Shown here one piece after another: positions 27,271 to 62,190 of a stretch of DNA of 64,000 nt. The number at the start of each line of letters is the position of its first letter. Position 1 is the first letter of the stretch. Origin of the DNA: Blasia pusilla (Eukaryota). The notes under the pieces were generated by a model that saw nothing but the letters and a program-made list of their open reading frames with translations, was not told where the DNA came from and made no database searches. The position numbers were made by a program, and so were the translations under genes. The stretch lies in NCBI GenBank assembly GCA_050084515.1, contig CM114271.1:22258001-22322000 (forward strand), in the 5' to 3' direction.

Positions 27271-27299
27271 ACCGCCCCCTTAGCTGGCAGTCGGGTCCC

Positions 27300-28470: not shown

Positions 28471-29298
28471 TTCTAGGGGCTGGTATTATGGATGGAGAGA
28501 GGAAGAGAGAGAGGAAGAGAGGAAGAGAGGAAGAGAGGAGAGTCTCTCTTCAAAAAGAAGGGCAAAATCCGTCTCCTCTCTTCAATTTTTTTTGACATTT
28601 TTGAAATTTTTGTTTGCTTTCAAATTCATGGAATCTTTAGAAGAGAGTAGCAAGTGGATCACATTCGGGCCTAAAGTAACCTTCTTTTTTGAGGCTTCCA
28701 AGAACAAGTAGACATCATAAGACCGCTACAAATATCCTTCCATCACTCTCCATGTGAGCCCAATTTTCTTCACATTGCCTGTCTAAGCCAGCTCTACAGT
28801 AAGCCGAGCTGAGGGGTATTAATGTCGGAGGACCATCGACAGATAATTTGACCCGAAGTAGCAATTTCACCTCAAGGAAAGGTTCAAATAAAGACTCTAA
28901 CTATGGTCTCAATAGACTCATGTGCCCTTCAAGGTTTAGCTTCTCTGAGGATGTGGGTGACATTATGGATTGTTGACTCTTCTTGCATTAAATATCCCAT
29001 CCGATCAATACTCATCCATGAGGGGGTTTCACAACAGAACAAATCACTAATTACTGATGGTAGCCAAAGACTTTCATGATAGCATTGGATGATGTTGGCT
29101 CATGAATGGGTGCATAAAGTATACCATGGAGTGTTATGCGTTTGACAACTTGGTTTCACCATTCTCTCAACCATTGAGAAATGTATGCATCAAGAAGAAA
29201 ATGTGATGAGACTGAGAGGACAATTGAACTAAAAGGTTGATAGCTATCATGAGTAAAGAGGAACGGATGCACCCATGTCCCTTCATTCAGACCCTTAA

Positions 29299-34275: not shown

Positions 34276-35889
34276 AGCAATCAAACTTAAAGAAGAGGAA
34301 ACTTACATATTCATTGCATGCATTGCCATTTCCAACATTGCCATGTGATGAGGAAATGGATGGAGCACAACTGCCTTCACGCAAAAATCCGCCTCCAATG
34401 AATTTGGGCGCTCCTCTGCAAACTGCGTCCACACCATGTACCTGTGGTTTCCATCCGAGATGAAGAAGTAAGGGTTCCCCATCCTGCTAAATTTGGTTCC
34501 TTCAATCGCTCTTCTGAACTCTTGATCTCTCATCCTCCAGAAAGTATCCAGCGCCTCCAAGTCCTCTTCCGTCACCACCGCTTGGGTTCCATAATTGTCG
34601 TAAGGTTGAACATAGAATGGAGGGAAGCTGTCGACGTAGGATGTCACTGCCGACTGTTTGAGCTTTGCAATGTCCTCCTCCGACTAAATTTTGCGGACGT
34701 ACCCCATTGTCCGTAATTGATAGAGTGGAATTCTCGGGGCGTTCTGGCCCTCCATCAGTGCCATATGCTTAACAATCTGCCACAATGGGGACCAAGTCAA
34801 TAAAATAATTAGCCTTCACATAACTCAAATTTTTCTTACCTGCTCAAAGATTGGGTCGATGTCGAGGCCTGCCAACTGCTCTGGGATAGCAGCAGGCAAG
34901 TCCACGGTGAAACTCATCGATACGATAAAGGTCGATTTCTTTGGCACGGTTCAAAGACGATGAAGACTCTTCTCCTACTTCTTCAAATATGTCCACCATC
35001 TCCACACTTGCTGTCCTCATGACCTCATTGTCTGTCACTTGAACTTCGGCCGTTTCCTCAACCGATTTTAGATTCATGGTGTCCTTAGACCTCATCAGAG
35101 ACATTTTTTGCATCTCAACACTCTCTGTTGGACGAGCATAGCTTTCTTCAATGGCAATTGCTTTTTCCTTTTGAGCTTTCGCGAATTTTGCTCGCCTCAC
35201 AGAGGCATCAAGACGCTTCTTCTGGTGTTTCTCATCCGCGACTCTTTTCTTCAAGGCCTTTGATGCCTCATCCTCGGCGTTTTGCTTAGCGAGCTCCTCT
35301 AGAACACTTTTTGCTAGAACCTCCTGCGTGTACACATCTGCTTCCCTTTTCCACTCCTCTATTTCTTGTTGCCTTATCTCATTTTCCAAACAAGGACCTA
35401 GAAATGGTGACGTTGGAGTCCTTATGGACTTGGGAGTGATGCTCCTACCTTGGTTGCTTGTGTTTTCTTTCTCGTCATGATGCATGTTGGGTCAGTTCTT
35501 CCTCTTTGACAGTCTAATCTGCTCTTGTGCACGATAGATCCCTCGGAGCATTTCCTGATGAAGCACCGTGACCCTAAACCTGACTCTCTTAGCCTTTCAT
35601 GATGAAGTGCCGTGACCCTCTACCATATGGGCTTGCCAAAATCAAACCCTCGTAGCGTCGGGTGTTGGATCTTTGTAACCTTCTAGCAAAGTGGTGATGT
35701 AGCCGAGTTTGGCAGCGGATAGGAAACGTCAACTGTTGCGAGGAAGAGCACATGAAATCGCGAAATGAAAAACGGGAATGATCAAAACCTCGGCCTTTTA
35801 TACTTTTCCAACCATTGAGCTGACCGTTGGGTGGTTGGGTCATATCGACAGCGACGTGTCGGCCGTTATGGAACTTTGCACGTGGGAAC

Positions 35890-36720
35890 CCGGGCAACCC
35901 GTCGATCTCCGACGGGTTGCACGCTTCCCTCGTCTTGGGGATGCGGGGTGAGTTACCAAGTCAACCTGTCCGAGGCCGACGGGTTGCACGCGTTCCTCGT
36001 CCTCGGGTAACAAGGCAACCCGTCGGAGACCGACGGGTTGCCTGGGTACCTCGCCTTGTTACCCGAGGGCCAAGTTGCACGCTTCCCCCGTCTTGGGGTA
36101 ATAAGGCAAGGTACCCGCGCAACCCGTCGGAAACCAACGGGTTGCACGCTTCCCTCGTCTTGGGATTACAAGGGGAGGTACCCGCGCAACTCGTCGGAGA
36201 CCAATAGGTTGCACACTTCCCTCATCTTGGGAAAACAAGATGAGGTATCCGGGCAACTCTTCGGAGACCAACAGGTTGCAAGCTTTCCTTGTCCTTGGGT
36301 AAGAATGCGACAAAGCATGGTCCCGAGGCAAGCCGTTGACCTCCAACGGGTTACAAGGTCTACCATGGGTTGGACACTTCCCACCATACGGCAAAACTGC
36401 ACTCACGGTTTGCACGATTCATTGGACAAAAGAAATTGACGCGAGATCCAAAAGGGAAAGTGAGGTTAGGTGCCTTACGAATCCGTCGCAGTCCCCAACG
36501 GGTTGCTGTAGCAAATCCATGCGATGTCTCGTATCTCGATGTTAGCAAATCCCGACTCCAATCATATAGGTCAGCCAAGCAAGGGGTACCAACCCAACGG
36601 ACTCCGACGGGTTGCAAGTTACACTCATACTCTTACAGAAGCAGGTACTCCGTGGCTTTGCAACCCACGTGTCTAAGTCCCAAATTTTGCAACCTGTCGG
36701 ACTTTGACAGGTTGCAACAG
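35890..36720. repeat. Palindrome cluster 4 (between the divergent genes), partly in 67-bp tandem units
   Basis: Palindrome starts at 35894 and 35961, then 36119, 36186 and 36253 (67-bp period), most followed by a cacgcttccctcgtcttggg-like sequence. Confidence 0.9.
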
Positions 36721-40282: not shown

Positions 40283-40899
40283 TGGTAGAGCAGTCCGAGC
40301 GAGACTCGTAGAGACCAGATAAGTATCTTGACTTCAAGCAAGTCCTTATGCTGTAGGAATGGTCTCAGCAAGGGAGTAGTACCCTCTCAAGCTTGTGTAC
40401 ACTTTGAAGCTTTCTCATTCTTGATGGAGGAGTAAAGAACTCATTTCTTCATTCTGATGTGCGATGCATATGTATGAGAATTCTTATTGGGTTTGCAGAG
40501 TGAAGAGTGAATCAGGAGAACACTTTCATCATTAGAATAATCAACATTGAGTTGTAAGAAATCTGTTCGATAGAGAGTAGCCTGCCTACACGGATTGAGC
40601 TCCAAAAGTAGGAGAAGCCAGCTTCTTGTTGAGGTCTTTGTGAGGCTCTTTGATGTTAAGTGAAGATCTACCTGAGCGTGAATTCAATTCCACTAGAGAG
40701 AATCGAGGAAAGAAATCTTGGTACCAAGGGAGAGAAGAATACATTGACAAGTGATTGAATCCGAATTGTACACACTTAACTACAACTATTGCAAGATAAA
40801 TGCCATCTTGAACTCTATTTTCACATAATCGTGATCCTTTTGGCGATCGAGCTCATTAAATTAATGTAAAAAGAACAATTCTTAAACTTCTTGTACATT

Positions 40900-41460
40900 A
40901 CATCCGCACATGTCCCCTCCTATGGGTCAATCTCAACCCCAACGCTCGATGGCTCGATTACTCTCGCAACACCCCGAGTCACCATCGCAACAGCCTCAAC
41001 TTGAGCCGCTCTACACATAAATCCCATCCTTGTAGAATCCTCATTAGCACATGGTAAGATGTGGAGGCTGGCGCGACACTAGCTACTCTTAGCTTCGTGC
41101 ATGCGTGCAATGGCGTCATCGTCATGGCAACAATCCTCTCCTCCAACTAATCTATGCGCGTAAGGAGCGCTGCATCATGTGCATGTCCTCCATCTACTAT
41201 GACGGGTGATAGCACTCTACCACTACAATCACCCACCAACTCTCTCACCCCCAAGTCATGTGCCTACATCAGGACGTACCTCATGGCAAAGATCATAATA
41301 CGTATCCCTAGTGTGACCATATCGGTGATAATGATCACATTGCCACTATAGTGGGGCCATCCTCTGTGGCTCCTGAGCAATCACAGGTGCCCGTGGCCCT
41401 CTCCCATGATGTGGGCAGTTTCTCTACTTATGTGGCCCATCACACGTTGTCGTATAGTAA
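40900..41460 (-). pseudogene. Gag fragment (two degenerate zinc knuckles) of the minus-strand DNMT-gypsy copy
   Basis: TCDGPHK*RNC and CDHYHRYGHTRDTYY. The reverse complement of 40900-41170 aligns with 42750-43010. Confidence 0.75.
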
Positions 41461-41470
41461 AATCAGCCAG

Positions 41471-42659
41471 TGTGTAAACTCCTTCCTCGTTAAGTGTTAG
41501 ATAGAGTTTTATTAGTATTAAGTAAATTAGCTTAGGAAAAGGAAATTCCCATGTTTAAACCTCTTTATGGTGCCTCTTCTATGCCGGCCCAAATTTATGA
41601 AAAGAGGTAATAAATAAAGGATGACTTTATAAAAGTAAAGTACTGAGGTTGGTGCTTTAATGAAAAGCAAAAGTAGGCTTGGTTGGTGGTTAGGTTAGTT
41701 GAGGTAATTTGGAAAATATCAAGTGGGTAAAAGATGATATTTTGGAAGAGATAAGAGGAAATCTATTTGTGTCAAAATGTGATTGGCTAAGCCTTGAGAG
41801 GAAGCCATGTGGCACAAGATAAGATTAGTTCTATTTCGTACCCTTTTGGGTCTCTTGTGAGTATATAAAAAGGAGGGACCTTCAAGGGTTCATCACCTTT
41901 TATTCCACATCTTGAGTCTCTCGTGTCACTCTTGAGTGTATGGCTTTGGAATTGCTTGCTCTTCCAATGAGAGTGGATCACTTCTCTTGGGAAAGTAACT
42001 TGATCATGCTCTATTTTTTGAAAGATTTCTAGAATGTGGTGTGTGTGGAAATGAGAGGTTTGTCACCTTAGAGGAGTTTAGTCATACTAAAATAGTGAAT
42101 GTTTTGGTTTGTTACTTCCCAATGAGAGTGGATTATCCCTCTTGGGATAATAACTCCGCCAAAACCCATTTTTGAGGAGAGTAGATAATGTTTGTCAAAC
42201 ATGGATAGGGGTGGAGTACGAGTTGTGCCCAAATTTCCTTTCCTTAATCCATATCATGTCAAGATACTTTTTGTAGATAGAAACTGGTTCACTCGTTATT
42301 TAGTTTATCACTTTCGGGAAGCGTTCATGAACGAGGTCATTCAATCTCCAACTCCGGTTATCCTTCCTATCGTCAGATATGGAAGGACATGGGATTATAC
42401 TTTGTATGTCCTTATATAGCGATCCATGGACATCAATATGCTTGCTCAAGTAGGGTTTAACACTAGTTGTGTTATCTTCCTCATGTACAAGGGTAAAATA
42501 GTTTATAAAGATTTTATAGTTAGGAATTTCGGAGTCCGATGTTACGAAAAAGTGATCGCCTCGGCACTTCCATTTGTGATACCTGTCGTGAGAAAATGGA
42601 GAGTATACATAATAATTTTATATTGAAAAAAAATATCTTCTTAGAGAGTTCATTTTGCA
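41471..42659 (+). mobile_element. LTR-like segment of an unrelated element
   Basis: Abrupt AT-rich non-coding block, TG start and CA end, TATA-like gtatataaaa at ~41861. No TSD or partner LTR seen. Confidence 0.35.
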
Positions 42660-44263
42660 TCGACCACGTATGCTGCAATTAGAAGGCATGGTGGTAGAGG
42701 ACCACCACCAACTAGAGAAGATGGAGCATGAGCACCAGAGCCGACACTTCTCTCATACATCGATCAATTGGAGTAGAGGATTGCTGCCATGACGATGATG
42801 CAGCTCAGGAAAGGCACGGAGCCGCGAGCAACTATTGTGGCTCCAACTTCTGCCTCTTACCCTGACCCGGGTGAGGATCTCGCTAGTATGGGGTTTATGT
42901 GTAGCGCAACTCTAGTTGAGGCAGCTGCAGTGGTGACTCATGGTGCTATGAGAGGCATCGAGCCATAGAGAGGTGGAGTTGAGATTGACCCATCGGAGGG
43001 GACCGATGGGCGGCAAGCTAGGGTTCTACAGTCATTCACATTGTCGGAGGCACTACACACACCATCGATGGTGCATTGACGACTAGTGGTGCCTACAACT
43101 CAGGCAAGTACGTCGACGTCACGAGGAGTTGGAGTGACAAATCCTATGTCGGCTTGAGTGGAGTCAATGTCGACCATAGTGTTGGAGGTGGCCACCAGAG
43201 TGAGTCAAACTCCGCTATTTTCCGCCATAGAGTTGGCAACGTTGGGAGTTGGACCAGCTGAGGTGTTCCGGTTGGCCGCCATGTTGTATGAGCATGGAGA
43301 GGTGACTGCTTCTTATTCAGAGGTAGTTGAGGAGATGGTGAACTTGCCCTCGGAACCGGTGCTCATGACGTCCCCCATAGAGTCATGGCATGCGGCGGAG
43401 CAGAAGTTGGTAGATATGCCAACTCGACGGGCCATAGAGGAGCAGTGGTGATACCTAGAGTAGTGTTACTGGATAATCGAGCTAGAGTATTTTGCTTGGT
43501 TAGTCCGACGGGGATAGTATACCACCCGCAGTGCGTCCTACTTGATTTGGAAGCGCAGGCCTTGATGTTAGGGAAGGCGGCGTGTTTAGCGTTGGGGTTA
43601 CGGAAGGCCGACATTGAGACTTGTCCCTTCCAGATAGAGACCTCGATTGGGGGCGTATCACCCACGCAGTATATGACTCGATAGGAGATAGTTGTTAGAG
43701 TCCAGCCAGAGCATGCGACGGATAGTGCTATGGTGCGCACATGTGCGATTACGACACAAGCTAAGTCGTACAATGTGTAGGTGGGGAGTATAGCGTTAAA
43801 TCCCCTAGGATTCATCCTTGACTTTTGGGAGGAGACCGTTGCTTATCGGCCAGGGTGGCGGTCAGGTGACGGGCAGATGAGTCAATTACCTTTGCAGTTT
43901 GCGGGACGAGGTGGTCGATCACGAGACGAGTCTGTGACCACGTTGGCAGCTTTCACAAGTAGTGTTAGCTGGCCATGAGAGTTGTTGGAGGGGAACGCAC
44001 ATGCGGAGGATGTCCCAATAGCGGATAGTCCCACTGAGAGACAGGCCATGGAGGGTGTCTCTTCCCATGTTGGCGAGACCTCTTCACCATTGTGGGGTAC
44101 AACTTGAGAGCTAGAGAGGAGTGCCGACAACCTCGTGACTCATGCGTGGAGTCATGCCTTTATCTCGGAGGAGCGAGAGTCAGGTGGCGATCGGGCTCCT
44201 GGAGTGGAGACATTGACCCCATTGGATACCACACGCGTTGTGTGGCAGTGTCCAGAGGAGGGT

Positions 44264-45190
44264 GTTAGGGTTTTAGATCTCTTCGGAGGGATAAGCACTA
44301 GATTGGTTGCAGTATTGTAGGCGGGCATACGGGTGCATCAGTACCTTTATGTAGAGAGAGATGATACCACACGGCAACTATCATTATGTCACGTAGCAAG
44401 ATTGGTCGAGAGGTATCCTGAGTTGTTGTCAGTATCTGCGAGTACGGGGATATCAACATACACTACTCGCCGACATCTCTTTGGTGGGGACGCAGGATCT
44501 GGATAGAGTTTGCACCATTCATTTGGTGATTGTTGGATGGCCATGTCATGGTCATTCATCAACTGGCCGAGGATTTGGATCGCAGGATCCAAGGCCAAGG
44601 ATGTTTTGGGAGATGCTGCGAGTAGTATGACACTTGCAGAAGACTCAAATACGTTCTCCAACATACATTTTTTAGAACGTGCCGTTGTTGGGAGACACTC
44701 AAGCACGTGTGATGACGAGTGTGCATCAAGTAAGGTCATGGTTACGACCTGTTGTGTTGCTAGATGCAGCGAGAGTTGGATCACGTGCCGATCGTCCATG
44801 ACTGTGGTGAACGAACCTGATAAGATCAGAGGTACTGAGTCTAGCATACGATGGAGTCTAGAGATCACCACATCTCACATTGGATGCTATTTTGGGCTCA
44901 GGGGGTCAATCTCAGGTGGTGATGCGGGATGATAGACAACCGTTGGCGATGGCCAATAGGGTGGGGGAGTTGAGGGCAGCCTTACCTACGTTGGTGATAT
45001 TCCCATCATCCCATGCCTTTTGTCAAGGAGGGCCACGCATGATTTGGGATGAGGTGACCTGAGCATTAGAGGAGCCTACAGTAGATGAGCGCGAGCGCGC
45101 CATGGGGTGTGCTACGGATACTACAGTGGTGCCAGGTATGACTGAAGCATCCCGGAGACAAGTGTTGGGGCAGGCGATGGACCTCAACTG
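44264..45190 (+). pseudogene. DNMT3-like C5 cytosine methyltransferase domain within the gypsy pol
   Basis: Motif I VLDLFGGI, II YLYVE, IV LVIVGWPC, QDPRPRMFWEMLRV, VI (E>*)NVP, VIII LLDAARVGSRADRP*LW*TNL, IX DERERAMG, X RRQVLGQAMDLN. Confidence 0.9.
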
Positions 45191-45599
45191 TCTCACGTCC
45201 ACGAGTTGGACCATTGCCTACACGGTCTATACAGGCATTGGCTAGGGGCGGGACAAGGAGAGATAGGCACCCATGGACTTCCTGGGACGTCGCTCGAGCA
45301 GAGAGTGCGAAGGCAGCCAGAGTAGCACATGTTCATTTTTTGGATGTGGAGCATGGTGTAGGAGGTCAGAGTGGAGTGGCTGTTGCGAAGGTGGCTAGGG
45401 TTGCTACATAGCAACCAAAGCCAGAGATTGCGTCCTCTCCGAGTGAGGTCACAATGGAGACTTAGGAGCCTGTGATAGGTCTCAAGTTGATAGGAGGAGA
45501 GCGACGGCGAGTTCATAGGTTTTTGAGAGGGCATGTCAGTTGTTTTGCCTTCAATATGAGATACTTGGGTAGCTAAAGGGTCTCGGGATACGGATTGAG

Positions 45600-48496
45600 T
45601 TGGCTAGTGATACGCCGATCTTTCGTCGACCCTACATGTGTTCTGATATGGAGCGAGCCTTGATTCAGAGCAAGAGTCAGGACTTGTGGAGTTATCCCAT
45701 GGGGAGTATGCATCTGCCACAATCATGTTGGCGAAGAAGGACATGTATGGCAATTGGACGGATAAGCGGATGTGTGGAGATTACCGTCCTATCAACCGAC
45801 ATACGAGGTCAAATCGGTACACCATGTCTACTCTTGAGGAGATCTTTGATGTGGTAGAGCATGCAAAGATCTTCGATACTTTAGATCTCTTTGCCAGCTA
45901 TCATCAACTTCCTATCAGGTTGGAGGACAGGGAGAAGACGGTATTATGGGGGATAGATTGGTTTGGGAGATATTGCTTGTATGAGTGACGGTTCTTATCA
46001 TTTGGGTTGAAGAACGCGCATGCAGAGTGTCAACGAGTGATGGATAGGATTCTGGCTGGCTTGGAATTTGTATGATGTAACATAGATGATATTCTTATCT
46101 TTAGTTCCACGGTTGAGGAGCATGAGCGACACCTGGAGGAGGTATTTCGGCATTGCAGTTACATGGACTGAAGTTACATCCAGGCAAGTGAAGATTCTTT
46201 CAGGAGCAGATTGAGTACTTGGGACACACCATAAATCTGAGTGGGTTAAGCATTCAGTAGACAAAGGTGGAGGCTATTGCGTAGATTCCACGCCCTACAG
46301 ATGTGAGTCAAGTCCGATCATTTCTTGGACTGGTAAACTTCTATCGACGGTATGTCAAGGGTTTTAGTGCGATCGCAAAGTCTTTCACCTTGTTGACGAG
46401 ACTTTATCAGGTTTGGTTGTGGGGAGATGATCAGGAGCGAGCATTCAAGGAGCTCAAGGACACATTGACGTCCTCATCCATTTTACAGAGACTGGTTAGG
46501 GGTCGCCCATTCCGGTTACATACGGGTTGGAGCATGTTGGTTCTAAGAGCATTGCTTACTCAGAGGGATAATGAGGAGAGGGAGTTTGTTATGGCTGACG
46601 CGAGCTGATAGAACAACATTTCAGAGGAAAATTATAACTCTTACGAGGGAGAGTGCTTGGCTGCAATGTGGGCCGTGGCACATTTCAGGTGCTATTTATT
46701 CGGCAACCCTTTCACACTTATCACTGATCATCAGCCGTTGAGGTGGTTGATGGAGTTCGACAAGCTTACGGGAAAGCTTTCCCGATGGGCTCTATTACTA
46801 CAGGAGTATGAGTTTGAGATGGTTCACAGGCCAGGTCGGCTGAACCATGATGCGGATGGTTTGAGTCGTAACCCATGTCCGAGTCAGAGAGACGACATAG
46901 GAGCTCGATGGCACGGAGAGAGTAATGAGGAGATGGTGCCCGGTTGGCATGCATCTACCTATCTTTGTTGGTTGACTATGGTAGTTCAATCATAGGTGAT
47001 GACTCTAGTAGTGGGATTGGATGATGAGTCTTTGGATCCGGAGGTCAGTGAGGAGGCGACAAGTGGTCGTGATATCCATGACGACGTGGAGGTTGTGGAG
47101 TTCTTGCGCAGTGACATCATAGCGAGCACAATGAGTGTTAGGGAGCGGGATCGGATCCTACAGAGAGCCAGGAGGTTCATGTGGGAGGGGACTCACATTT
47201 TGCAAGTATGGGGAGATGGTAGGATGCGAGTGGTACCTCATCCTTCCTAGCGAGCAGGTGTAATGTGACATGCCCATGAGGAGTTGGGACATTTTGGAGT
47301 GAAGCGTACTTACAACTTACTCTAGATTCAGTATTGGTGGCGTGACATGCATATTGGGGTACAGCAAAGTATGTGACAAAGTACGAGCATCCTTCAATGC
47401 TCCCACTCCGTAGTTACATCCTTTGCCGATTATGGGTTTATGTTATCGGTGGATTTTAGACTTTGCGGTACCTTTGCCATTGACGGGACGTCATCACAAG
47501 TACTTGTTGGTCATGGTGGAGCATTTATCCAAGTGGATAGAGTTGGTGGCACTACCGGACAAGGTGAGCAAGGAAACAACTTATGCATTTCTAGATCGTG
47601 TGCTTAGTCACTTTGGTGCACCAGCGGAGGTGTTGACTGACCAAGGTCCCGAGTTAAGGGGAGAGTTTTAGACCTTGTGTGATCAGGCGTTGATAGATCA
47701 CCGCACCACGTCCATAGATCATCTTGAGGCGGATGGGTTGGTGGAGAGAGTAGTACATACGGTGAAGAGAGGATTGCGCAAGTATGGCTTCCAACGGGGA
47801 CAGTTCAGGGAGTGGGACCTACACTTGTCATTGTTGGCTATGGGTTGTCGCTTTAGTCGGTACGCATCCTTGGCATCATTTTCACTGTAATTTTTGCTCT
47901 TTGGGAGAGAGCCAGATTTACCTTCAGCTATTCGACGTAACGTGGCGGAGGTGTTAAATCTTGATGATCCAGATGTGTGGGTACAAGCGTGTTCTTAAAG
48001 GGCAAAGATTTTTTGTAGAGTTATGCCTATGGCCTTTGGGAACTTAGCTATTGCTCAGCATAAAGATACATTGAGGTACGCGACCATTCGTGGAGGAGGT
48101 TATCGCCCAAGGATTAAGAGGTTTCATCCTGGAGATTACGTGTATTTACAGCAAGCGGCACCCACGACGCTACATGTCACTGTAGGGCGCACAATCCTAC
48201 ATGTGCGCGAGATATTATCGACTAGAGTTATCATGTTGGAGAGACGGGATGGTATGGTCTAGAAGGATCATGTGCGCAATTGTGCGCCATGCCATCTTCT
48301 GAACGTAGACGGGACAGTGGATCCGAGCTTGGCAGTGGTACTTGCAGGCTTGAGGTGTATGTTGTGCGGATCTGCGAGGGGTGCAGCCACCATGTTGGTA
48401 TGTGATGGTTGTTCTCGAGGGTGGCATATGTCATGTCTAACCTCCCCTCTTGATGTAGTTTCCATGGGACGATGGATGTGTCCGAGATATGCATAG
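45600..48496 (+). pseudogene. Gypsy RT - RNase H - integrase - PHD finger (degenerate)
   Basis: PIFRRPY, KRMCGDYRPIN, (Y>N)IDD, VRSFLGLVNFYRRYV, LITDHQPL, LTDQGPE, ADGLVERVV; PHD CMLC...CDGC...WH..C...WMCP. Confidence 0.92.
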
Positions 48497-48575
48497 GGTC
48501 ATAGGTCATGTTAGAGAGATGTGATATTTTCTATCTGGAGTTGGGGGAAATCCAACTGCCAGCTAGGGGGCCGGT

Positions 48576-49331
48576 TGTGTGATCTCCATGTACGTGTATG
48601 AATTTATTTCTGTACATGTGTGGATCTACTTGTGTTTGGGGAAGACTGGTGTTGTGTGGTGTAAATCTGACCAGGGATATATATTTTGTAGCGATATGTA
48701 TGTGCACGACAGTTGTCACATCTCAGTAGCCGATAGGCCGAGATCTATCGTGGATAGGGCGTAGGAGCTAGCGGACTATCTTGAGTGTAACTTTGTCCCA
48801 TAGTGTTGGACGAGGTTGATGATAGGTCCATTGTGTTAGGAACGTCATTTCTGATAACTTTCCTGTTGAGGTCTTTCACAACCGAGTGACTTGTTGACCA
48901 GGTCATCCGCACTTGGTAACCTGTGCGCGTAGGTTACCAAGGATTTGGCTATTTTTAGGGGAAGAGCCTTTTGGCTCTTCCCAACCCTATATAAGAGAGG
49001 AAGATGGCTTTCCTAAGCACTCTTTCTCGTGTTGGGTCGTTGGAGCACCTCTCTTGTATGTGTGTGACATAGGACTATGGTGCTGGCATCCGGATTCCTT
49101 AATAGCACAGGGTGGACGAGGCTCGATATGCCAATGGAGATTGAGGAGTGGAGTTTTAGGCCCGGTGTGTCATTTTTTACTACTCTTTATTTTATTGTGT
49201 GATCTCCATGTACATGTATGAGTTGATTTTTGTACATGTGTGGATCTACCCGTGTGTGGGAAAGATCGATGTTATGTTGTGTAGATGTGACCAACGATGT
49301 ATGTTGTGTAGCGATATATATGCGCACGACA
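48576..49331 (+). repeat. 3' terminal B-A-B repeat block of the + strand DNMT-gypsy copy
   Basis: B1 48576-48711 and B2 49196-49331 (136 bp each, TG...CA) flank A 48714-~49190. Purine tract AGGGGG at ~48565-48570. Confidence 0.88.
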
Positions 49332-49502
49332 TCTGCACCAAAGAAATCTGAGAAAAATGGATAGCGCTTCCGTGCACGACCTCTCAAACTAAAAAAACGA
49401 AAAATACAAACGCCAACCAGTGTCTCCAAGGGCTCCCGACTGAGGCAACTCACTTGCCTACCTGCAAATAACGAATTCTCTGCCCCCTCGCATCTTTCTC
49501 AT

Positions 49503-49992
49503 GTAAAATCAAGAGTAGTAAAAATAGCTCACCCGACCTAAAACTCCACTCATGAATCTACATCGGCATATCAAACCACATCCATCCTCTGCTATGAGGG
49601 AATCCGAACGCTATTACCCTAACTCCTACACATCCACACACGTCTATGCAAGAGAGGCGCTCCTAAGGCTCAACATGAGAAAGATGGCTTGAGAAAGCCA
49701 TCTCTCTAACTCTTATACCCTTGGGAAGAGCCAAAAAGCTCTTCCCCCCAAAACAGCCCTCCCAACGGTAACCCACCTGCATATATTACCGGATGATTGT
49801 TGACTCGGTCAAGGGGTCACATGACGGACTAAAACCAAAATAGGGAAATCGCCACAAACGACGTCCCTGATGCAATAGAGTTCTCGCCAACCTCATCCGA
49901 CATCTCGGGACAAAGTTACACCCAAAAAGCCTGCTGACTCACTATGTCGTCGACGCGATAGAAATTTACCTACGTCAAAATAAGATGTGACA
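49503..49992 (-). repeat. 5' terminal repeat A of the minus-strand DNMT-gypsy copy (no B attached)
   Basis: High similarity to 26655-27130; followed on the minus strand by unique leader sequence, not by B. Confidence 0.85.
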
Positions 49993-50909
49993 ACAACTAA
50001 GGTGCAATCTGATGCCACTAGTGATGGAAATGAGAGCAAACCAAAGTCAGGTGGCATGAGGAAGAAAACAAGAGTACTTACTAAATCCCCAATTCTATGC
50101 TTTCCTTGCAATATAAATGATATTTCAGATGTTATTGTGAGCAGATTTTCAACATGGATGATGTCAAGTTCAAAAGGATATTACCACTTAATGGTTGGTC
50201 TTACAAAAAGTTACAATGTTTGTGACTTCACAATTTTGGACTTTATCCAATTTTTTATGAATGATAACGAAGATACTTATTCTTTTGTTTTCATATCAGT
50301 TGTAGGTTGGAGACAAGGTTGAATTCACTGAATTGAGGAATACTTTACATGTTATTGGCTATGGAGTGGTTAGTGGCCTTCAACGTAAAGATCGGTTATA
50401 TGGGTAGGAAATCCCAATAAGGGCACTCTCTTGTTGCTTGATTGAGGCCGTTGAGCCTAACTTAAAATTATGGCAAGCGAATAAGGACGATGAACCGCCA
50501 CTATATGTTTTGGGTGATGTTGTACGATTAGTTGTACTTTGGCCTAAAAAAAAAACTGAAAGAAAAGAGTACACTGATCTACTTCTATTAGATTTGGTGA
50601 TTAGATTTTTACTTTATGTTTCTATTGAACACTTTTCTTGTACCTACGAGGGAATTTAAACGTTGTTTCTACTTCAATATTCACATAATCCAAAAGAGAA
50701 GTCATGAAAAAGGCCATCTGACAATCAATTCTATTTTGTCTTCTCCTCCGAGGTATAAATTCCATGTTCTTGGTTCTTTACATTTCATATTTCTAATTAA
50801 GTAGGCATACAATTATTGGCTTCTTTTCATTTCTTACAATACATTCATATACTAGCTAGTGGTACCTTAAAAAACTGCAAACCATCAAATATACCCAATC
50901 CAACTTAGA

Positions 50910-51369
50910 TATATGACTACATGACTAATTGAAAAGACTGAATGAATGACGCAATGAGTCATCTCATGACTCCATGCATAATTGAAGTTGACTTTGGGAG
51001 TAATGAAATGACTCTATGAGTCACACATACATATCACTTTAAGTCATTATGTGTTTGTGATAATCTATTGAACATTTAACTCTTTTGTCTTATTATCTAT
51101 TCCGTAAAAGCGACGTGGTATTCCACATTGGATTGATGATGTGTAACACACGTGTCAATTTTATCCTTTTATCCACGTCATTTACTACGTATACTCACTC
51201 ACAAGTCATACATAAATGACTTGGTTAAATTAAATGACAATAGTTATGACAAAAATGACTTCTCTTTTAAGAGTGGTTGAATCATAAGTCATATTTAGTC
51301 GTGGTTTGTAAAATACGAATCTATGGAGTCATATTTTAAAGTCATGAAAGTGATCTTATTCTTCTAGTG
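50910..51369. mobile_element. Probable CACTA-type terminal fragment with subterminal ATGACT/AGTCAT repeats
   Basis: Many short direct and inverted atgact motifs ending at ttcttctagtg (reverse complement CACTAGAAG). The other end was not found. Confidence 0.35.
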
Positions 51370-55937: not shown

Positions 55938-56954
55938 TGTCGCGACCCTCATAACCAAACAACACCAAATACGCGCCAAGCGAAACATCAGAACTCAAAG
56001 GAACTCACGCCGCGAGGTTTGCGCTTTGGAGAGGCGTTTGGAAGAGTCTCTTGGAAAAGTCTAAGAGACGAAACGCGGAACAGAGTTGTGCGTTTCATGC
56101 GTTAGTGGTCGCGACCAGGAAACCTAGACCAAACGCGAGCCGAGACTTGAGATGAGTTGAGTCTTGGAGGTTGGTTGCCAAAGAGGTGAGAACCAGTTTG
56201 GAACACGGCTAGCGTTTGGGAGAATCTGACTGTGTTTAGGACCATAACGTTGAGCTCCAAGATGCGTTCGGGACAAGTAAGGGCGCGTTGAAAAGCTGAT
56301 CTCGAGATGCTTCCAACGCACAAAAGATCTCAGCAAACGCATAAGTACAGGCTGAGATATTGGCCAAAAACGATTCAGAGAGCAATCGGGTTGAGGGCCA
56401 ATTGAGGGGCCCGGTGTGTCTTTCCTAAATGTAGGGGGCCCCGGAGATCCCCAGAAGTACTAGTAAGGGGAGTACCTTCTCTGAGATGTCTCGGAAACGA
56501 AACCCCACTTTGGGCGCCAAACGGCGTTCAGAGGCACGGATGAAACGGGAGATGAAACCCAAACCCAAACCTGATCCAAGGGAGTGGACTTTGTACGCCA
56601 CACTTGGATTCCAACCGAGATTCACCGTGCAAGTCTTGGTGAGGAACTCATTGGATGTTCATCGGACAGTTGGAACCGCTAGGCGCGAAACGCCGTTTCA
56701 GGTTCTTGAACCGACCAGAAAGTTTGTCCCAAGTCTTTCGAGACTTGCCCGTGTTGGAAACCGCGAAACTAGGAAGGTTGAGCTTGAAGAGAGAGTTTGA
56801 GACGAGAACTCGGAAAGTCATCCCGCTGATTGATCCAAGACCCGACTAACCGAAGTGCGTGTTTGGATGCAGATCAACGTTGAGAGCGTGACCTACTGAA
56901 CGCACGCTTCCGCAACAAACAAGATTAACGTTCAAGGAGAGTAGGCGCACGACA
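55938..56954 (+). repeat. 5' LTR of the chromovirus
   Basis: TGTCGCGACC...GCGCACGACA. Confidence 0.96.
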
Positions 56955-56956
56955 CG

Positions 56957-56968
56957 TGGTATCATAGC
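56957..56968 (+). promoter_or_regulatory. Primer binding site (tRNA-iMet type)
   Basis: TGGTATCATAGC, one mismatch from TGGTATCAGAGC, 2 nt after the LTR. Confidence 0.85.
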
Positions 56969-57106
56969 AATTCCTTGATGAGCGTGAACTTGGGGTCGTT
57001 GAAGATCTGGATGTTTGGGGAGAACTCAAGGTAGCCGGAAGACCGCGACGCCGAGGAGGAACGCAAGAGGCGAGGAGGAGATCTGAGAAAAGGCGACGAC
57101 TCGCAA

Positions 57107-60100
57107 ATGGCGACCAAGGGCGAAGAACCGAGGAAACCGCGAGTCAAAGCAAAGAAGCCAAGAGACGAATCAATGAAGGACCGAGAGCCGGAGGTGGAAT
57201 TTGCGACTCCCGAAGTGCCGAAACCTAGACATGAGGATGTTCCAACCGAAATCTTTCCGCGGGACCTTCGGGAAGACCTTTGTAAGACTAATTTGCCAAC
57301 ACCATTCACAGGAAGGGGGCATTCTCGGAAAGTGAGCGAGTTTCTAACGGAACTCGAACTCTATTTCGAAGCGCAAAAGGCAGATGAACAAGACAAGGTG
57401 ACTGTAGCGGTCACGTTTCTGAAGGATCACACTCTCCATTGGTGGACGGCTCACCGCAAAGAACATCTAGGTCGTGGGAAAACGTTGAGTTGGGAAGATT
57501 TCAAGGAGTTGATTGGGAACCGATTCACTCCATAATATCAAGAGTACCGCGATGGCATGGAGGTGGTGAGGTTGCGCCATAGTGGATCACTTGGCGCTTA
57601 TGTGCGAGAGTTTAGTGCGCTCATGAGTGCACTTTCCACGGATGAACATACTAAAAAGGTGATCTTCCTAAGTGGGCTCAAACCGAGTGCCGAGAAGGCT
57701 CTCTTTCGTATGCCTCACATCCCAGAGACGTGCGCGGACCTCTTGAGACTAGCCGAGCGGATTGGGGACGATGAAGTCCAACACCCGAAACCCTTTGAGA
57801 CAAAAAGTTTTTCTAAGTTACAGAAGAACAAAGGGACATCCAAGAGGGTTTGGAATGGGGGTGAGTGCGACCACGGAGGGTCTCTTGCCCCAGCGGCGAA
57901 ACGAGTGGAACTCAACGCGAAGCCAAAGGGGCCGCCGTTTACGAAGTCAGCGAATGCCAAAGTGATTTGCTACAATTGTGGCGAACCCGGGCATATGGCT
58001 AAGGAATGTGTTAGGCCCAAGGTTAGTAAATCGAGTATGATTGCGTTTGCCGCTAAGCATTTATCGGAGGGAGATCTAGATACATCTCTACAAGTCACCA
58101 AGAGAACGCCCAATTTGGTTTACCTAGGATCCAAGATCGCTAATCGCGATGTGATGTTGCTCGTTGGTACAGGTGCTTCGCACTCATTCTTGAGTCCGAG
58201 AATCGTAAAAACGTTGGGATTGCCAACCACCAAGGCGGATGAACCCATTAGGGTAGGATTTGCGGGAGGCAAGTCCCACCAGACATCAGATCTGGTTTTA
58301 GGGCTAGTTGTGAGATGCGGAGTGTTTGAGTTGAAGGAGAATTTTACGCTATTTTGAGATGGACGGTATCGACGAGTCTTGGGAACACGTTCTTGGATGC
58401 GTATGAGGTGGAACTGAGGCAAAGACCTTTGAGGTTGAGCGTCTTGGTTAACGGCAAACGGACGGACGTCAGATTGGTTCGTGAGGTGCCTAGAAAGACG
58501 GAGTTGGTGAACGCCATCACGAGGACGAGTTTGGCCGAGTTAGAGGAAGGATTCCTTTGCTTGATGAGACGAGTAGAGGATGATGCAAGCGCGAGATGCA
58601 GAGATCAGAACTCAGCTTCAAGGGGGATCCTTGAAACACTCAAGAGAGTTGTGAAAGAATTTGAAGATGCGTTGACTAAGGAGCTTCCGACTGAGTTGCC
58701 ACCACATAGGGCAGTTGATCATAAGATTGAGGTGCTACCAAGATCTCAACCACCTTCAAAGGCACCATATAGGTTGAATCAAGAGGAACTTGCTGAGTTG
58801 AAGAAACAGTTGGGTGAACTCCTAGAGAGGGGTTACATCCGAACAAGCAAGTCACCTTATGGGGCGCCCATCCTCTTTGTAAAGAAGAAGGATGGGAAGT
58901 TGAGACTCTGTGTTGATTATCGGGCGCTGAATAAAGTGACGGTAAGGAATAACTATCCTCTACCGAGGATGGATGACCTCTTTGATCGATTTTGGTGCCA
59001 AGTATTTCAGCCGGATTGACCTGAAATCAGGATATTATCGATTCGGATTGCCAAGCGGATGTAGAGAAGACCGCCTCAGAGGACGAGATACGGTTCGTTC
59101 GAGTTTGTAGTAATGCCTTTCGGTCTTTGTAATGCACCTCCGACGTTTACCACTTTGATGAACTCCATCTTTCACAAGGAGACGGATGAGTTTGTGATCA
59201 TCTATATAGATGACATACTCATCTATTCGAAAACACTAGAGGAGCACGCTTCGACATTTGAAGACGGTGTTTGAGAAACTTAGGCTTAACAAGTCGTATG
59301 CGAATGCGGATAAGAGTGAGTTCGGTTTGACGAAGATCAAGTTCTTGGGGCATGTGGTTAGTGCGGATGGAGTGAGTCCAGACATGGAAAAGGTGAGCGA
59401 TTGCGAATGGGAACCTCCTTCCACGGTGAAAGGGATGAGAAGGTTCATCTGAGTCGCCCAATTTTACCGGACATACGTGAAGAACTTTTCGCGATAGTGA
59501 AACCTCTCACGGATTGGACCGCAAAGTTTTCCAATACTACATGGACCGAGGAAGTGGATAAAGCGTTCAATCGAAGTCAAAGAGATCCTCTCGCAGAACG
59601 ATTTCAAGTCGCCGGAGTTTGAACAACCGTTCGAGGTGCACACGGATGCTAGTGATTTCGTGATTGCAGGAATGTTAGTGCAAAAAGGGAGACCTGTAGC
59701 ATACGAAAGCAAGAAGCTTAGTGACACCGAAAGGAGATGGCCTACTCATGAGAAAGAGTTGTTTGCGGTGGTTCATTGCTTGAGGAAGTGGCGTCACTAT
59801 TTGGGACTTCACAGGACTCGAGTATTCACCGATAACATATCGCTCAAGTATTTTGAGACCCAGGATCGCGTGACGCCAAAACAACTTCGGTGGCATGATA
59901 CCTTGGCGTTGATGAATGTGGAGCTAATCCACAAGCCGGGGAAAGACAATGTCATTCCAGATGCGTTAAGTCGCAGGGATGAACACATGCCATCGACGAC
60001 ACAAGTGTTGAGAGCAATGTTCCCTAATGAAACAGACCTGGAAAGAAGGATTCGTGAAGGATACATGAAGGATGAGCAAGCGAGGGAGTACCTTGGGAAG

Positions 60101-61497
60101 TTAAAGCGGGGCGAGAAGGTGGCCAATCTGAGTTTGAGACACGGCTTGCTAAGGTTTAACCAGAGCAGGATTTATGTAGGCCAAGGCAAGCTACGGACCA
60201 AGGTGTTTGTGGAATGTCATGATGGACCTTTGGCGGGACACAAAGGGGAGAAATCCACTCTTGTTGTTTTGTCTAAGAGGTTCTTCTGGCCCAACATGAA
60301 GGAAGATGTTGCTCAATATGTGAAAACATGCGTGACTCCGCCAAAGCGAACGCGTGTCTTATGCGAAGAAACAAGGTTTACTTCATCCTTTGCCAATCCC
60401 GGAGGGACCCTTGCAAAGCATTAACATGGATTTCATTACGAGTCTTCCAGAATCTGAGGGATACAATGCCATACTTGTGATAGTTGATTGGTTTAGCAAG
60501 TTGGGGAGGTTTGTGCCGACGAGAGAGTCTGCGACGGCCTACGCGACTTCCCGACTATTCTTGGATGGTTGGTGGCGTGCGCACGGATTGCCTAGGAGCA
60601 TTGTGTCCGATCGGGATCCGAAGTTTACCAGTGTCTTTTGGAAACATCTATTCAGGAGGTTCCGGACCAAACTCAGCTTTAGTACGGCCTTCCATCCTCA
60701 AACGGATGGGCAAACGGAAAAATTAAACTCGGTCGTAAACCAATACTTACGGAATTACGTGAGTGCGGACCAAAGAGATTGGGCCAAGTGGTTAAGTATG
60801 GTTGAGTATTGTTACAACTCGACTAAGCATTTCGCAACCGAGAATCTCGCGTTTTTCGGGCGTATCAAAGAGAACCGAAGGGCCTCTTGACTTAGCTCTT
60901 TCGAAGGGCAATACATCGACACACACTCGTCAAGCAACGGCGGAATGTTTGTTAGTGGAAATGCAGGAACGACAAGAGCGAGCGAGAGAAAGTCTCGCCA
61001 AGGCTCAACTAAGGTACGTAAAGCATGCTAACAAAAGTCGGCGCCAAGTGAGTTTCCAAGTTGGGGAACAAGTGTGGTTGAGTGTTAAGAATCTCACTCT
61101 TCCGAAGGAATTGTCCGCGAAATTGTCAGCCAAGTATCCTGGACCGTATGTGATCAAGGCAAGGCCGTTTGAGGATGTGTACACGTTGGAGCTGCCAAAC
61201 GAGTTCAAGATTCACCCGACTTTCCATATGTCATTATTGAAGAAGTATCTTCAAGACAACGTGCGTCCGGAGCAAAGGAGGATGTTGAGACCACAACCGG
61301 TCATCAGAAATGAGGAACCAGAGTTCGAGGTTGAGACTATTCTGCGTTCCAGACGTAGGGCCACCAAGTACGAGTACTTGGTCAAGTGGAAAGGCTATCA
61401 TGTGAAAGAGGCGACTTGGATTGCGGAGGCGGATCTAGAACATGCGCAAGAAGCATTGCGTGACTTCAGATGGATGCAAGAAAGGCACGTGCGTTAG
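57107..61497 (+). pseudogene. Chromovirus gag-pol (zinc knuckle, protease, RT, RNase H, integrase, chromodomain), interrupted by one stop and several 1-nt frameshifts
   Basis: [68 protein letters not shown]...YLVKWKGY...ATW. Confidence 0.95.
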
Positions 61498-62177: not shown

Positions 62178-62190
62178 AAGGAGGGGTGAG
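62178..62190 (+). promoter_or_regulatory. Polypurine tract
   Basis: AAGGAGGGGTGAG directly before the 3' LTR. Confidence 0.85.

Follow-up and report, generated by a model that had tools for sequence, protein, structure and literature searches.

The element and its methyltransferase domain

The remains of a Ty3/gypsy retrotransposon, from which a degenerate cytosine-C5 methyltransferase (MTase) domain can still be read, lie at 42735–49331 of the window (the whole stretch of 64,000 nucleotides that was analysed). All features below are on the + strand unless noted. The colinear element begins at 42735 with the last part of gag and the stretch of ORF1 that precedes the protease (42735–43445), where the gag HMM starts matching and where amino acids 395–604 of the Marchantia gene model P0088 align (42738–43445). 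The copy lacks gag residues 1–394 and the 5′ repeat A1; self-matches and the gag HMM recovered neither a direct copy of repeat A upstream nor the gag N-terminus in this copy, and no family protein matched the segment 41448–42734. The rearranged 5′ side of the copy is marked by an inverted fragment of the C-terminal part of the family gag at 40794–41447 on the − strand (gag HMM from 23 relatives, iE 1.2e-13; tblastn with P0088 aa 304–465), which pairs as an inverted repeat with 42758–43003. The protease region, placed by tblastn alignment to P0088 and P0105, occupies 43448–44250; its active-site triplet has decayed to D-L-E (43544–43552) compared with D-S-G in the relatives, and the homologous residues of P0105 gave a weak match to Pfam Asp_protease_2 (22.7 bits, below the cut-off of 24.3).

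The DNMT3-like MTase domain follows at 44264–45190, with C5-methyltransferase motifs I, II, IV, VI, VIII, IX and X in canonical order. The preliminary description had quoted these seven motifs from the translation, and all of them were found in that order, on that strand and in that place. Motifs I (VLDLFGG, 44270–44290) and II (YVE, 44348–44356) are read in a first frame. The reading frame breaks once, near 44440, where a one-letter length difference shows in 333 of the 400 DNA reads that come from other copies, and the remaining motifs are read one base off the first frame: IV (GWPC, 44535–44546), VI (xNVP, 44673–44684), VIII (SRADRPxLWxTNL, 44781–44819), IX (ERERAMG, 45087–45107) and X (VLGQAMD, 45162–45182). 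This motif set is far beyond chance. The domain is a pseudogene with seven in-frame stops, one in the first frame (44318) and six in the second (44628, 44673, 44799, 44808, 44859 and 45060). The stop at 44673 takes the Glu codon of ENV, a position conserved in the relatives, and that at 44799 replaces the second Arg of Arg-x-Arg, likewise conserved in them, with the further stop at 44808 two codons on. The catalytic Cys had been called intact, and GWPC is indeed present; the residue has no functional meaning here, because the window copy is dead.

The assignment to the C5-MTases, for which a search with PF00145 had been proposed, was upheld when the translation of 44442–45239, with X at the stops, scored 22.4 bits against this Pfam profile (curated cut-off 22, E 9.5e-5); intact relatives scored 35–47 bits. 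When 1716 candidate proteins were searched with the same piece, 86 matched at E ≤ 1e-3; the top match (9.3e-93) covers 97% of the query at 61% identity. The N-terminal piece (44252–44497) alone gave no Pfam match and was aligned to motifs I–II of the relatives solely via tblastn matches. When the broken domain was searched as a single sequence against solved structures, the matches were weak (best E 0.066, M.HaeIII), and an ESM Atlas look-up returned generic C5-methylase clusters only; clear answers from the structure databases came from family profiles only. With a CpG observed/expected ratio of 0.72, the element is no outlier in the window (0.68), so no methylation-decay argument can be drawn from it.

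Downstream, the C-terminal tail of ORF1 (the HPWxxWD stretch, 45190–45408; P0088 aa 1210–1261 at 45190–45357) is read in a third frame, since the length differs once more near 45193, and joints at 45193–45196 were seen in 294 DNA reads. An in-frame stop closes ORF1; together with its context it reads TAG CAA CCA (45409–45417), and it was located by alignment to the junctions of the relatives. Then come a reverse transcriptase (RT) broken by frame changes (45466–46160; Pfam RVT_1, E 1.1e-10 at 45779–46159), with which P0090 and P0100 align at 54–66% identity; an RNase H (46420–46810; RT_RNaseH, E 5.9e-25, and RT_RNaseH_2, E 2.8e-21); an integrase with H2C2 zinc domain and rve core (47242–47715; Integrase_H2C2, E 1.1e-7, and rve, E 4.4e-11); and, at the integrase C-terminus, a PHD finger (48356–48493; Pfam PHD, E 2e-8) that has lost its last Cys and is also found in the relatives P0113 and P0116. 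RVT_1, RT_RNaseH, Integrase_H2C2 and rve thus stand in the Ty3/gypsy order of protease, RT, RNase H and DDE integrase, with the protease remnant upstream. Both the gypsy setting and the position of the MTase between protease and RT had been proposed from the letters; they are borne out by these domains, by the protease active-site remnant and by colinearity with the Marchantia models, P0088 aa 395–1261 running along 42738–45357 and P0090 remaining colinear up to 47205.

Repeats and family plan

The 3′ side of the element (48575–49331) consists of repeat B1 (48575–48711, 137 bp), repeat A2, the 3′-side "LTR" copy (48712–49194, with about twice the read depth of the internal part), and repeat B2 (49195–49331), B1 and B2 belonging to direct repeat family D7. 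The element ends at 49331, where loose ends occur in 2088 reads with an agreement of only 0.38. Another copy of this family, with an internal deletion, lies at 26513–28471 on the − strand (blastn self-matches; tblastn with P0088 aa 515–774; repeat family D6); its protease region (28471–27545) is joined to an inverted B-A-B (27272–26513), and it has no MTase, RT or integrase. The region as a whole is transposon-dense and heavily rearranged, with inverted fragments and nested repeats, and holds another gypsy element besides the MTase-bearing family.

Among the relatives, the arrangement A1-coding-B1-A2-B2 was found in three of the four loci tested (L066, L069 and L061, not L047), and A2 of the window is homologous in position to the 307–342 bp direct repeats of L006, L066, L061 and L069. 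Two identical flanking LTRs were not found: the relatives carry the DIRS-like pattern A-coding-B-A-B, and the window copy is without the 5′ A. Less decayed relatives show how the family is built: repeat A comes first, followed by a leader of some 1.1 kb, ORF1 with gag (CCHC), protease and MTase, a TAG or TAA stop, ORF2 with RT, RNase H, integrase and PHD finger in the same frame, and B-A-B. The feature is best read as the MTase domain of a dead, 5′-truncated Ty3/gypsy copy whose family carries a DNMT3-type MTase as a regular coding part; we place the probability of this reading at about 0.85, a figure that covers identity and anatomy and excludes the mechanism proposed below.

Affinity to DNMT3

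The class of the MTase was evaluated with family profiles and a predicted fold. With a 41-sequence profile, the best matches were found to be DNMT3A (7e-26, 94.4 bits), DNMT3C (3.8e-23) and DNMT3B (1.5e-22), followed by NtDRM (1.2e-15, 60.7 bits), DRM2 (7.7e-12), M.HhaI (3.2e-9, 39.5 bits) and DNMT2 (3e-6, 29.6 bits). An 11-sequence profile gave the same order, with DNMT3A, 3C and 3B on top (55.6 bits); neither DNMT1 nor a chromomethylase was among the matches listed for the two profiles (55 and 57 rows, the latter at E ≤ 1). An AlphaFold model of an intact relative built from the 41-sequence alignment reached a pLDDT of 91.4, and one from a 10-sequence alignment (pLDDT 47) was set aside. Foldseek placed DNMT3A, 3B or 3C at every rank shown for the former, with target-normalised TM values of 0.79–0.84 for catalytic-domain chains and DNMT3A chain 6f57_D as the best match (E 6.4e-19, TM 0.84). 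The motif order is unpermuted (I–II before IV–X), unlike that of DRM. Family profiles, predicted fold and motif order thus agree with the DNMT3-like character first suggested for the domain, and it is on profiles and predicted fold that the MTase is assigned to the DNMT3 type.

The host enzymes of this type (mammalian DNMT3A, 3B and 3C; in plants, for example, PpDNMT3b, as described in the text of PMC6453930) share with the family the motifs LFxGIxTG, ENV and HRxRxxWxNL. They differ in motif IV, which is GWPCQG in the window family and GSPCN in DNMT3A, and in that the family domain is embedded in a retrotransposon polyprotein and shows no Pfam companion domain in the six relatives scanned.

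Relatives, host range and the two architectures

Colinear polyproteins were found in Marchantia, Riccia, Calypogeia and Sphagnum, and among the matches listed all named close relatives are from liverworts or Sphagnum mosses. The Marchantia models are as close to the window element in the MTase (59–62% identical) as they are in the RT (54–66%). Altogether 365 representatives (50% clustering) match at E ≤ 1e-30, and a relative is encoded in 117 of 169 metagenome stretches found by pattern. Such relatives already sit in public protein sets, including that of Marchantia polymorpha, as unremarked gene models. The suggestion that the range of retrotransposon-borne DNMTs might extend to land plants is therefore supported by the liverwort and Sphagnum hosts: relatives are numerous in both groups, and what was known as a peculiarity of algae occurs in land plants as well.

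Two architectures were distinguished, type A with the MTase between protease and RT, as in the window, and type B with the MTase between RNase H and integrase. The only named members of the type-B sister clade are from chlorophytes, Monoraphidium neglectum (MNEG_11595) and Cymbomonas tetramitiformis (CYMTET_8324). Type B resembles the window family in its related MTase (32–36% identical to that of the window; E 1e-53 to 1e-81 against the type-A profile), in the PHD finger after the integrase and in its RT lineage, and differs in the place of the MTase and in the chlorophyte named hosts. No printed description of type-B elements was met in a literature search that did not go by their names.

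The MTase trees split cleanly by architecture (36 versus 43 rows) with a support of 99 (SH-aLRT) and 0.997 (FastTree). The RT tree sets all 8 type-A rows, the window RT included, and all 27 type-B rows apart from the outgroup, which is a single sequence, the other gypsy element of the window. A tentative reading, well short of an even chance, is that one ancient PHD-bearing gypsy lineage has brought a DNMT3-type enzyme from the algae, chlorophytes and charophytes, to the land plants, has shifted its place in the polyprotein a single time, and persists in bryophytes, Marchantia polymorpha among them, in hundreds of copies, with the enzyme at capsid stoichiometry ahead of a leaky stop. Against vertical descent from algae, the bryophyte elements may have gained their MTase separately from those of Klebsormidium and the green algae, or may have spread horizontally among bryophytes. 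Recurrent independent captures are argued for in the text of PMC5890265, the MTase occupies two different positions in the polyprotein, and no Klebsormidium-named protein appears among the 229 matches listed. Such an origin is nevertheless unlikely, given the strongly supported split of the MTase trees, the PHD finger common to both architectures, the grouping of type-A and type-B RTs apart from the single outgroup, and the A-coding-B-A-B repeats, which match the figure legends for KnitGypsy-Dnmt3 in PMC5890265. Named sequences also cluster by host in the tree, those from Marchantiales together and those from Sphagnum together.

Catalytic residues and constraint

Residue conservation was counted by alignment column over 234 domains at ≤50% redundancy, replacing regular-expression counts that proved too narrow. 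The catalytic Cys was found in 31 of 32 type-A and in all 159 type-B domains, the motif VI Glu in every domain of both types (32/32 and 159/159), and almost every one of the 234 retains Cys, Glu and Arg-x-Arg. Glu takes the place of the Pro that precedes the catalytic Cys in 11/32 type-A and 84/159 type-B domains, an exchange unusual for active C5-MTases; Pro-Cys-Gln is kept in the crown group that holds the window MTase. Among decayed copies, dN/dS was 0.58 for the MTase, 0.41 for RT–RNase H and 0.74 for the protease region. The family domain is presumed to be enzymatically functional.

The domain might instead be a genuine part of the family that does not methylate DNA: a pseudo-enzyme with a structural role or a role in binding nucleic acids, or else an RNA MTase acting on the element transcript. 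The exchange of Pro for Glu in a third to half of the relatives and a dN/dS only moderately below 1 would suit this idea, and RNA methylation was raised in the text of PMC5890265 for a LINE-borne DNMT inactive on DNA in yeast. The near-universal Cys, Glu and Arg-x-Arg, the Pro-Cys-Gln of the crown group, and the nearness of fold and profile to the DNA enzymes DNMT3A/B/C rather than to DNMT2 make it improbable.

Copy number, decay and RNA

The family is present at about 350 copy-equivalents in the same organism. Whole-genome sequencing depth (reads at least 80% like the window) was 996–1090 in the MTase bins, equal to that of the protease bins (950–1293), and 2–4 in the flank beyond 50018; only 137 of 101,568 placed reads are at least 99% like the window copy. 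The MTase is stop-free in only 2 of 37 unbroken-frame metagenome copies. The window copy is dead and most copies seen are decayed. In all three RNA runs, which carry the same species label, reads in sense orientation were found across the element, with a depth of 2–10 over the MTase against 34–97 over RT–integrase. This roughly ten-fold lower depth suggests that expressed relatives may largely lack the MTase or be too diverged to match.

The preliminary description had allowed that the domain might be missing from other copies of the family; it was found both in other copies of this genome and in relatives elsewhere. That the window copy alone captured a host DNMT3 fragment, or that a host pseudogene adjoins a gypsy insertion, is suggested by a degenerate copy in a rearranged, transposon-dense region, but is exceedingly improbable in view of an MTase depth equal to that of the protease and about 350 times that of the flank, the same gag–protease–MTase–RT order in Marchantia models and metagenome loci, and the six relatives scanned without a Pfam companion domain of host DNMT3. 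Colinearity, read depth and the metagenome loci rule it out unless the reads stem from non-element sources.

The conserved stop and a possible mechanism

An in-frame stop with the context TAG/TAA-CAA-CC parts gag–protease–MTase from RT–RNase H–integrase–PHD. In the relatives' loci with the junction aligned, the stop is followed by CAA CC in 58 of 58 (TAG in 39, TAA in 19), the downstream frame is unchanged in all five loci read, and the corresponding position is where the Marchantia models P0088 and P0091 terminate. The CCC found downstream in most loci fits only in part the context rule for read-through, CAR-YYA. No conserved RNA structure was detected after the stop (consensus energy −6.64 kcal/mol, covariation term +0.32), and the case for read-through is consequently one of codon context. 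Read-through of a gag/pol stop codon is used by gammaretroviruses and by Skipper of Dictyostelium; these share with the window family a single in-frame stop, an upstream structural ORF and an RT-bearing ORF in the same frame, and differ in that the upstream ORF of the window family also holds the protease and the MTase and no downstream RNA structure was detected.

Chromoviruses are Ty3/gypsy elements with a chromodomain at the integrase C-terminus. The window family likewise has a chromatin-reader module fused there, the reader being a PHD finger and not a chromodomain; by analogy, the PHD finger may have a targeting role. A mechanism can be proposed from the anatomy and from the discussion in the text of PMC5890265; in its specifics, from ORF1 stoichiometry to PHD tethering, its chances are somewhat below even. 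The enzyme would be made in the same amount as Gag because ORF1 would be translated in full, and RT and integrase would be made only via occasional read-through of the stop. The protease would free the MTase within the particle, the MTase would act de novo on new double-stranded cDNA or on integration-site DNA, and the PHD finger of the integrase would tie insertion to one given state of the histone H3 tail. The window copy is capable of none of these steps.

Known systems and significance

Retrotransposons that encode the silencing enzyme of their hosts have been described in dinoflagellates and one charophyte alga (PMC5890265, main text). In KnitGypsy-Dnmt3 of Klebsormidium nitens (de Mendoza et al. 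2018, PMC5890265), as described in the text, a Ty3/gypsy-type, intronless and multi-copy element carries an unpermuted DNMT3-type MTase in its polyprotein, and the window family likewise has a DNMT3-type domain within a gypsy polyprotein. According to a figure legend, the KnitGypsy-Dnmt3 repeats are DIRS-like (A-coding-B-A-B), as found here in three of four loci and on the 3′ side of both window copies. The two differ in their hosts, a charophyte alga as against land plants (liverworts and Sphagnum), and in constraint, which is much weaker among the decayed copies here (dN/dS 0.58) than the Ka/Ks below 0.2 given for KnitGypsy-Dnmt3 in the text of PMC5890265. SymbioDIRS-Dnmt3 of dinoflagellates, as the same text describes it, also has a DNMT3-type enzyme in a retrotransposon Pol and A-coding-B-A-B repeats; it uses a tyrosine recombinase, unlike the window family with its DDE integrase (rve) and protease. 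No bryophyte gypsy element with an MTase was described in the full-text literature searched, a body to which subscription journals, supplements and the DNMT tables of the Marchantia genome do not belong. The element is thus of a known kind, and its extension to bryophytes was not found in print within that literature.

Since the family sits unremarked among Marchantia gene models, surveys of PF00145 in bryophytes may be counting transposon copies. The family is abundant in a genome whose element groups, by sequence, with those of liverworts and Sphagnum. The conserved stop, the PHD finger and the combination of A-coding-B-A-B repeats with a DDE integrase bear on the replication and target choice of such elements, and what a transposon gains from an MTase becomes testable in a plant with methylation mutants and transformation. 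If the tentative reading of one ancient lineage is true, transposon-encoded de novo MTases would be an overlooked contributor to bryophyte methylomes that could be studied in a tractable plant.

The Methyltransferase Domain

Three-frame translation of 44100–45400 recovered the C5-methyltransferase (MTase) motifs claimed in the preliminary description, interrupted by stops and one frameshift. On the forward strand, VLDLFGG (44270–44290) and YVE (44348–44356) share a first frame piece; after a frame change near 44440, a second piece carries GWPC (44535–44546), xNVP (44673–44684), SRADRPxLWxTNL (44781–44819), ERERAMG (45087–45107) and VLGQAMD (45162–45182). The first piece is broken by one in-frame stop and the second by six. 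When the repaired translation was searched for PF00145, as had been proposed, the second piece (X at stops) scored above the Pfam cut-off (22.4 vs 22 bits), and the first piece searched alone gave no Pfam match. The second piece was matched by 86 of 1716 candidate proteins at E ≤ 1e-3, the best with 9.3e-93 and 61% identity.

An 11-sequence family profile, run against every solved chain, ranked DNMT3A first (3.7e-14), with DNMT3B and DNMT3C next, followed by tobacco DRM, M.HhaI, DRM2 and DNMT2 (8.3e-7, 1.2e-4, 7.7e-4 and 1.9e-3, respectively). Similarly, a 41-sequence profile placed DNMT3A (7e-26), DNMT3C (3.8e-23) and DNMT3B (1.5e-22) above DRM (1.2e-15), M.HhaI (3.2e-9) and DNMT2 (3e-6), and neither DNMT1 nor a chromomethylase occurred among its 57 rows. 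An AlphaFold model of the intact relative P0001, built with the 41-sequence alignment (pLDDT 91.4, pTM 0.89), retrieved only DNMT3A, 3B and 3C among the Foldseek matches listed, the top match being 6f57_D (E 6.4e-19, target-normalised TM 0.84). DRM has a permuted motif order, whereas that of the window family is unpermuted. On these profile and fold rankings the MTase is classed as DNMT3-like, as first described.

Element Anatomy and Terminal Repeats

Downstream of the domain, Pfam identified RVT_1 (45779–46159), RNase H (46420–46809), an integrase zinc domain and core (47242–47713) and a PHD finger (48356–48487), all on the forward strand. With longer relatives, tblastn traced a single colinear polyprotein: residues 395–1261 of P0088 (Marchantia polymorpha Mp_4g09160, 1278 aa) align to 42738–45357, the alignment of P0090, another Marchantia model, extends to 47205, and P0113, a relative with integrase and PHD finger, spans these up to 48484. 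The protease active site 5' of the MTase is recognisable but decayed (VLLDLEAQ vs LLDSGAQ in relatives). The placement of the MTase between protease and RT thus held, with the protease remnant upstream, RVT_1 downstream and colinearity throughout. In the copy, the first ~394 gag residues are missing and no 5' repeat is present. A piece of gag lies inverted at 40794–41447, and the minus strand carries another copy of the family, with an internal deletion, at 26513–28471. The 1.3-kb segment between the inverted fragment and the element (41448–42734) has an element-like DNA depth of ~1000–1200 and showed no match to family proteins or the gag profile.

Direct repeats of ~307–342 bp, 88–94% alike, were found in four metagenome loci (L006, L066, L061 and L069); they depart from a simple LTR plan. 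A stretch of ~114 nt immediately before the 3' repeat recurs directly after it (89–94%) and not beside the 5' copy in L066, L069 and L061; no such match was found in L047. The layout in the relatives is A1-coding-B1-A2-B2. Repeat analysis of the window gave B1 at 48575–48711, A2 at 48712–49194, where DNA read depth doubles, and B2 at 49195–49331, with 2088 reads having loose ends at 49331; the deleted copy (26513–27272) is B-A-B as in the main copy. In the figure legends of PMC5890265, DIRS elements are described as 'A-coding region-B-A-B', and, as far as those legends go, this common oddity is the best available link between the window family and the Klebsormidium element. A partial inverted repeat A (49504–49990), directly 3' of the element end, matches 26655–27128 in direct orientation, and opposite-strand joints occur there in DNA reads (49177/49508, 70 reads).

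The window is otherwise a patchwork of decayed transposons, with a LINE-type RVT_1 remnant (20750–21150, forward), a Ty1/copia RVT_2 (24640–25290, forward, E 1.8e-39) and a tandem array (35885–36306) whose units start every 67 bases. A second Ty3/gypsy element (55938–63213) has ~1020-bp LTRs, 97% identical (55938–56954 and 62191–63213), and its open frames are longer; between its RT and that of the MTase-bearing family, identity is 26–31%.

Copy Number, Age and Expression

About 1/100 of a whole-genome run under the same species label was aligned to 41000–51000 at ≥80% likeness. Depth, summed over both read orientations, was 996–1090 over the MTase, 950–1293 over the protease region, 1407–2324 over RT–integrase and 2–4 beyond 50018. 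This suggests roughly 350 MTase-carrying copy-equivalents at a depth equal to that of the protease, an approximate figure, given the very low baseline depth. Of the 101,568 aligned reads, just 137 were ≥99% like the window copy and 64,319 were under 90%, so this copy is old. A one-letter length difference at the 44440 frame break was present in 333/400 reads, so the break is not characteristic of the family. The same order recurs in longer public proteins (MTase-RVT-RNase H in P0090, aspartyl protease then MTase in P0105, gag then MTase in P0088), and a metagenome contig scan yielded 117 relatives (80 kept), with whole elements of ~9 kb on several contigs. Absence from other family copies, which the preliminary description had named as fatal to its claim, was not observed: the MTase is present at protease-like read depth and in relatives. 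Reads, proteins and contigs agree that it is a regular part of the element. Among metagenome copies having an unbroken frame, the MTase is without stops in only 2 of 37; most copies are dead, and that in the window is a fossil.

Three RNA runs under the same species label were aligned to the window at a set likeness threshold. First mates fell mostly on the minus strand, which indicates sense RNA if the library is of the usual stranded kind. Depth was 2–10 over the MTase, 34–97 over RT–integrase and 35–167 over 41334–42669; relatives are therefore transcribed, though at this threshold the MTase is far less represented than the remainder. RNA depth peaked over segment 41448–42734 (35–167), a uniform loose read end occurred at 41448 (115, 222 and 138 reads), and 20 reads join 47168 to 41441, a link seen in RNA only.

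Constraint on the Enzyme

Across 234 MTase domains, the catalytic Cys was found in 31/32 of type A (MTase between protease and RT), 159/159 of type B (MTase between RNase H and integrase) and 43/43 unclassified domains, and the motif VI Glu (ENV) in 32/32, 159/159 and 42/43, respectively; the motif VIII Arg pair is nearly invariant. Unexpectedly, Glu replaces the Pro before the motif IV Cys in 11/32 type A and 84/159 type B domains. Identity to Marchantia models was 59–62% for the window MTase, 54–66% for RT and 39–49% for the protease region. Pairwise dN/dS among decayed metagenome copies (dS 0.1–0.6) was 0.58 for the MTase (761 pairs), 0.41 for RT–RNase H (833 pairs), 0.42 for integrase (99 pairs) and 0.74 for the protease region (411 pairs); a separate calculation for the MTase agreed. 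Since its value lies between those of the other regions, the constraint on the MTase falls within the range seen for the parts essential to the element. In contrast, the sections of PMC5890265 on KnitGypsy-Dnmt3, the Klebsormidium element, report Ka/Ks <0.2, a much stronger constraint than the 0.58 of the present copies.

A Conserved In-Frame Stop between ORF1 and ORF2

The MTase frame ends ...PKVFA-stop and resumes in the same frame into RT in 5/5 loci read. A stop stands at this junction in 58/58 aligned loci (TAG 39, TAA 19), followed by CAA CCC in 56, CAA CCT in one and a final-letter gap in one; the window has TAG CAA CCA (45409–45417). The Marchantia models P0088 and P0091 stop 37 residues past the HPWxxWD motif, a distance as in the loci, and the Sphagnum fallax model P0109 skips exactly this stretch, as a stop-avoiding gene predictor would. 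Because it is kept at one place in every stop-riddled copy, with only TAG and TAA exchanged, the stop is ancestral, which makes ORF1 gag-protease-MTase and ORF2 RT-RNase H-integrase-PHD. It is read here, from sequence, as a putative programmed read-through site. The CAA after the stop resembles the tobamovirus-type read-through context; a conserved RNA structure sought 3' of the stop was not found. Public Marchantia and Sphagnum models (P0090, P0095, P0101 and P0109) get from the MTase into RT by leaving out the stretch that contains the stop (~310 nt in the loci). These transposon ORFs are annotated as ordinary genes, some named DNA (cytosine-5-)-methyltransferase.

Two Architectures and Their Hosts

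Custom domain probes classified all 349 relatives' proteins as type A, the window's type (MTase after gag/protease or before RT; 53), type B (MTase following RT/RNase H or immediately preceding integrase; 163), MTase domain alone (132) or mixed (1). Pfam gave the order RT-RNase H-MTase-integrase-PHD in P0113 and P0116. Named type B hosts were only the chlorophytes Monoraphidium neglectum and Cymbomonas tetramitiformis, plus one match, polyprotein P0316, labelled as from a Minisyncoccia bacterial bin, probably a eukaryotic contig binned by mistake. The MTase tree divides exactly by architecture (36 vs 43 rows; SH-aLRT 99 in IQ-TREE, 0.997 in FastTree). In an RT tree for which the other, unrelated gypsy element of the window served as root, 27/27 type B rows grouped together (0.889) inside a grade of type A rows, which is a hint only, because the tree has one outgroup and was built with FastTree alone.

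An exhaustive profile search gave 7068 representatives at E ≤ 1e-3, 1367 at ≤ 1e-10 and 365 at ≤ 1e-30. The named close relatives are all from bryophytes: Marchantia polymorpha (many models), M. paleacea, Riccia sorocarpa, Calypogeia fissa, Sphagnum troendelagicum, S. jensenii and S. fallax. The suggestion that a gypsy-borne MTase occurs in land plants was thereby supported. A small FastTree built from named sequences joins the window sequence weakly (0.775) with one from Calypogeia; both fall within a crown clade where Marchantiales form one cluster and Sphagnum another.

Proposed Mechanism and Significance

Anatomy and conservation are established, and from them the following course is inferred. 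The MTase would be produced together with Gag and protease, outnumbering RT and integrase, and would be freed by the protease; it may then methylate either the double-stranded cDNA of the element or the target site, and the PHD finger would guide integration. Methylation of cDNA or target-site DNA is given a probability of roughly 0.4; a non-DNA or non-catalytic role of the MTase is considered unlikely. Gains suggested in the Discussion of PMC5890265 include evasion of foreign-DNA recognition, deamination protection, insertion-site chromatin shaping and self-limitation.

In the openly available full texts searched, no account of bryophyte elements of this sort was found. The words Marchantia and Sphagnum do not appear in the available text of PMC5890265; in the relevant passages, a 2025 survey (PMC12344493) places TE-embedded DNMT3 'in streptophytes and dinoflagellates', citing the 2018 paper only, and a 2019 opinion (PMC6338049) states that such transposons are absent from land plants, 'such as tracheophytes'. 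The kind of element is already known; the present family adds a wider host range, together with some newly described anatomy.
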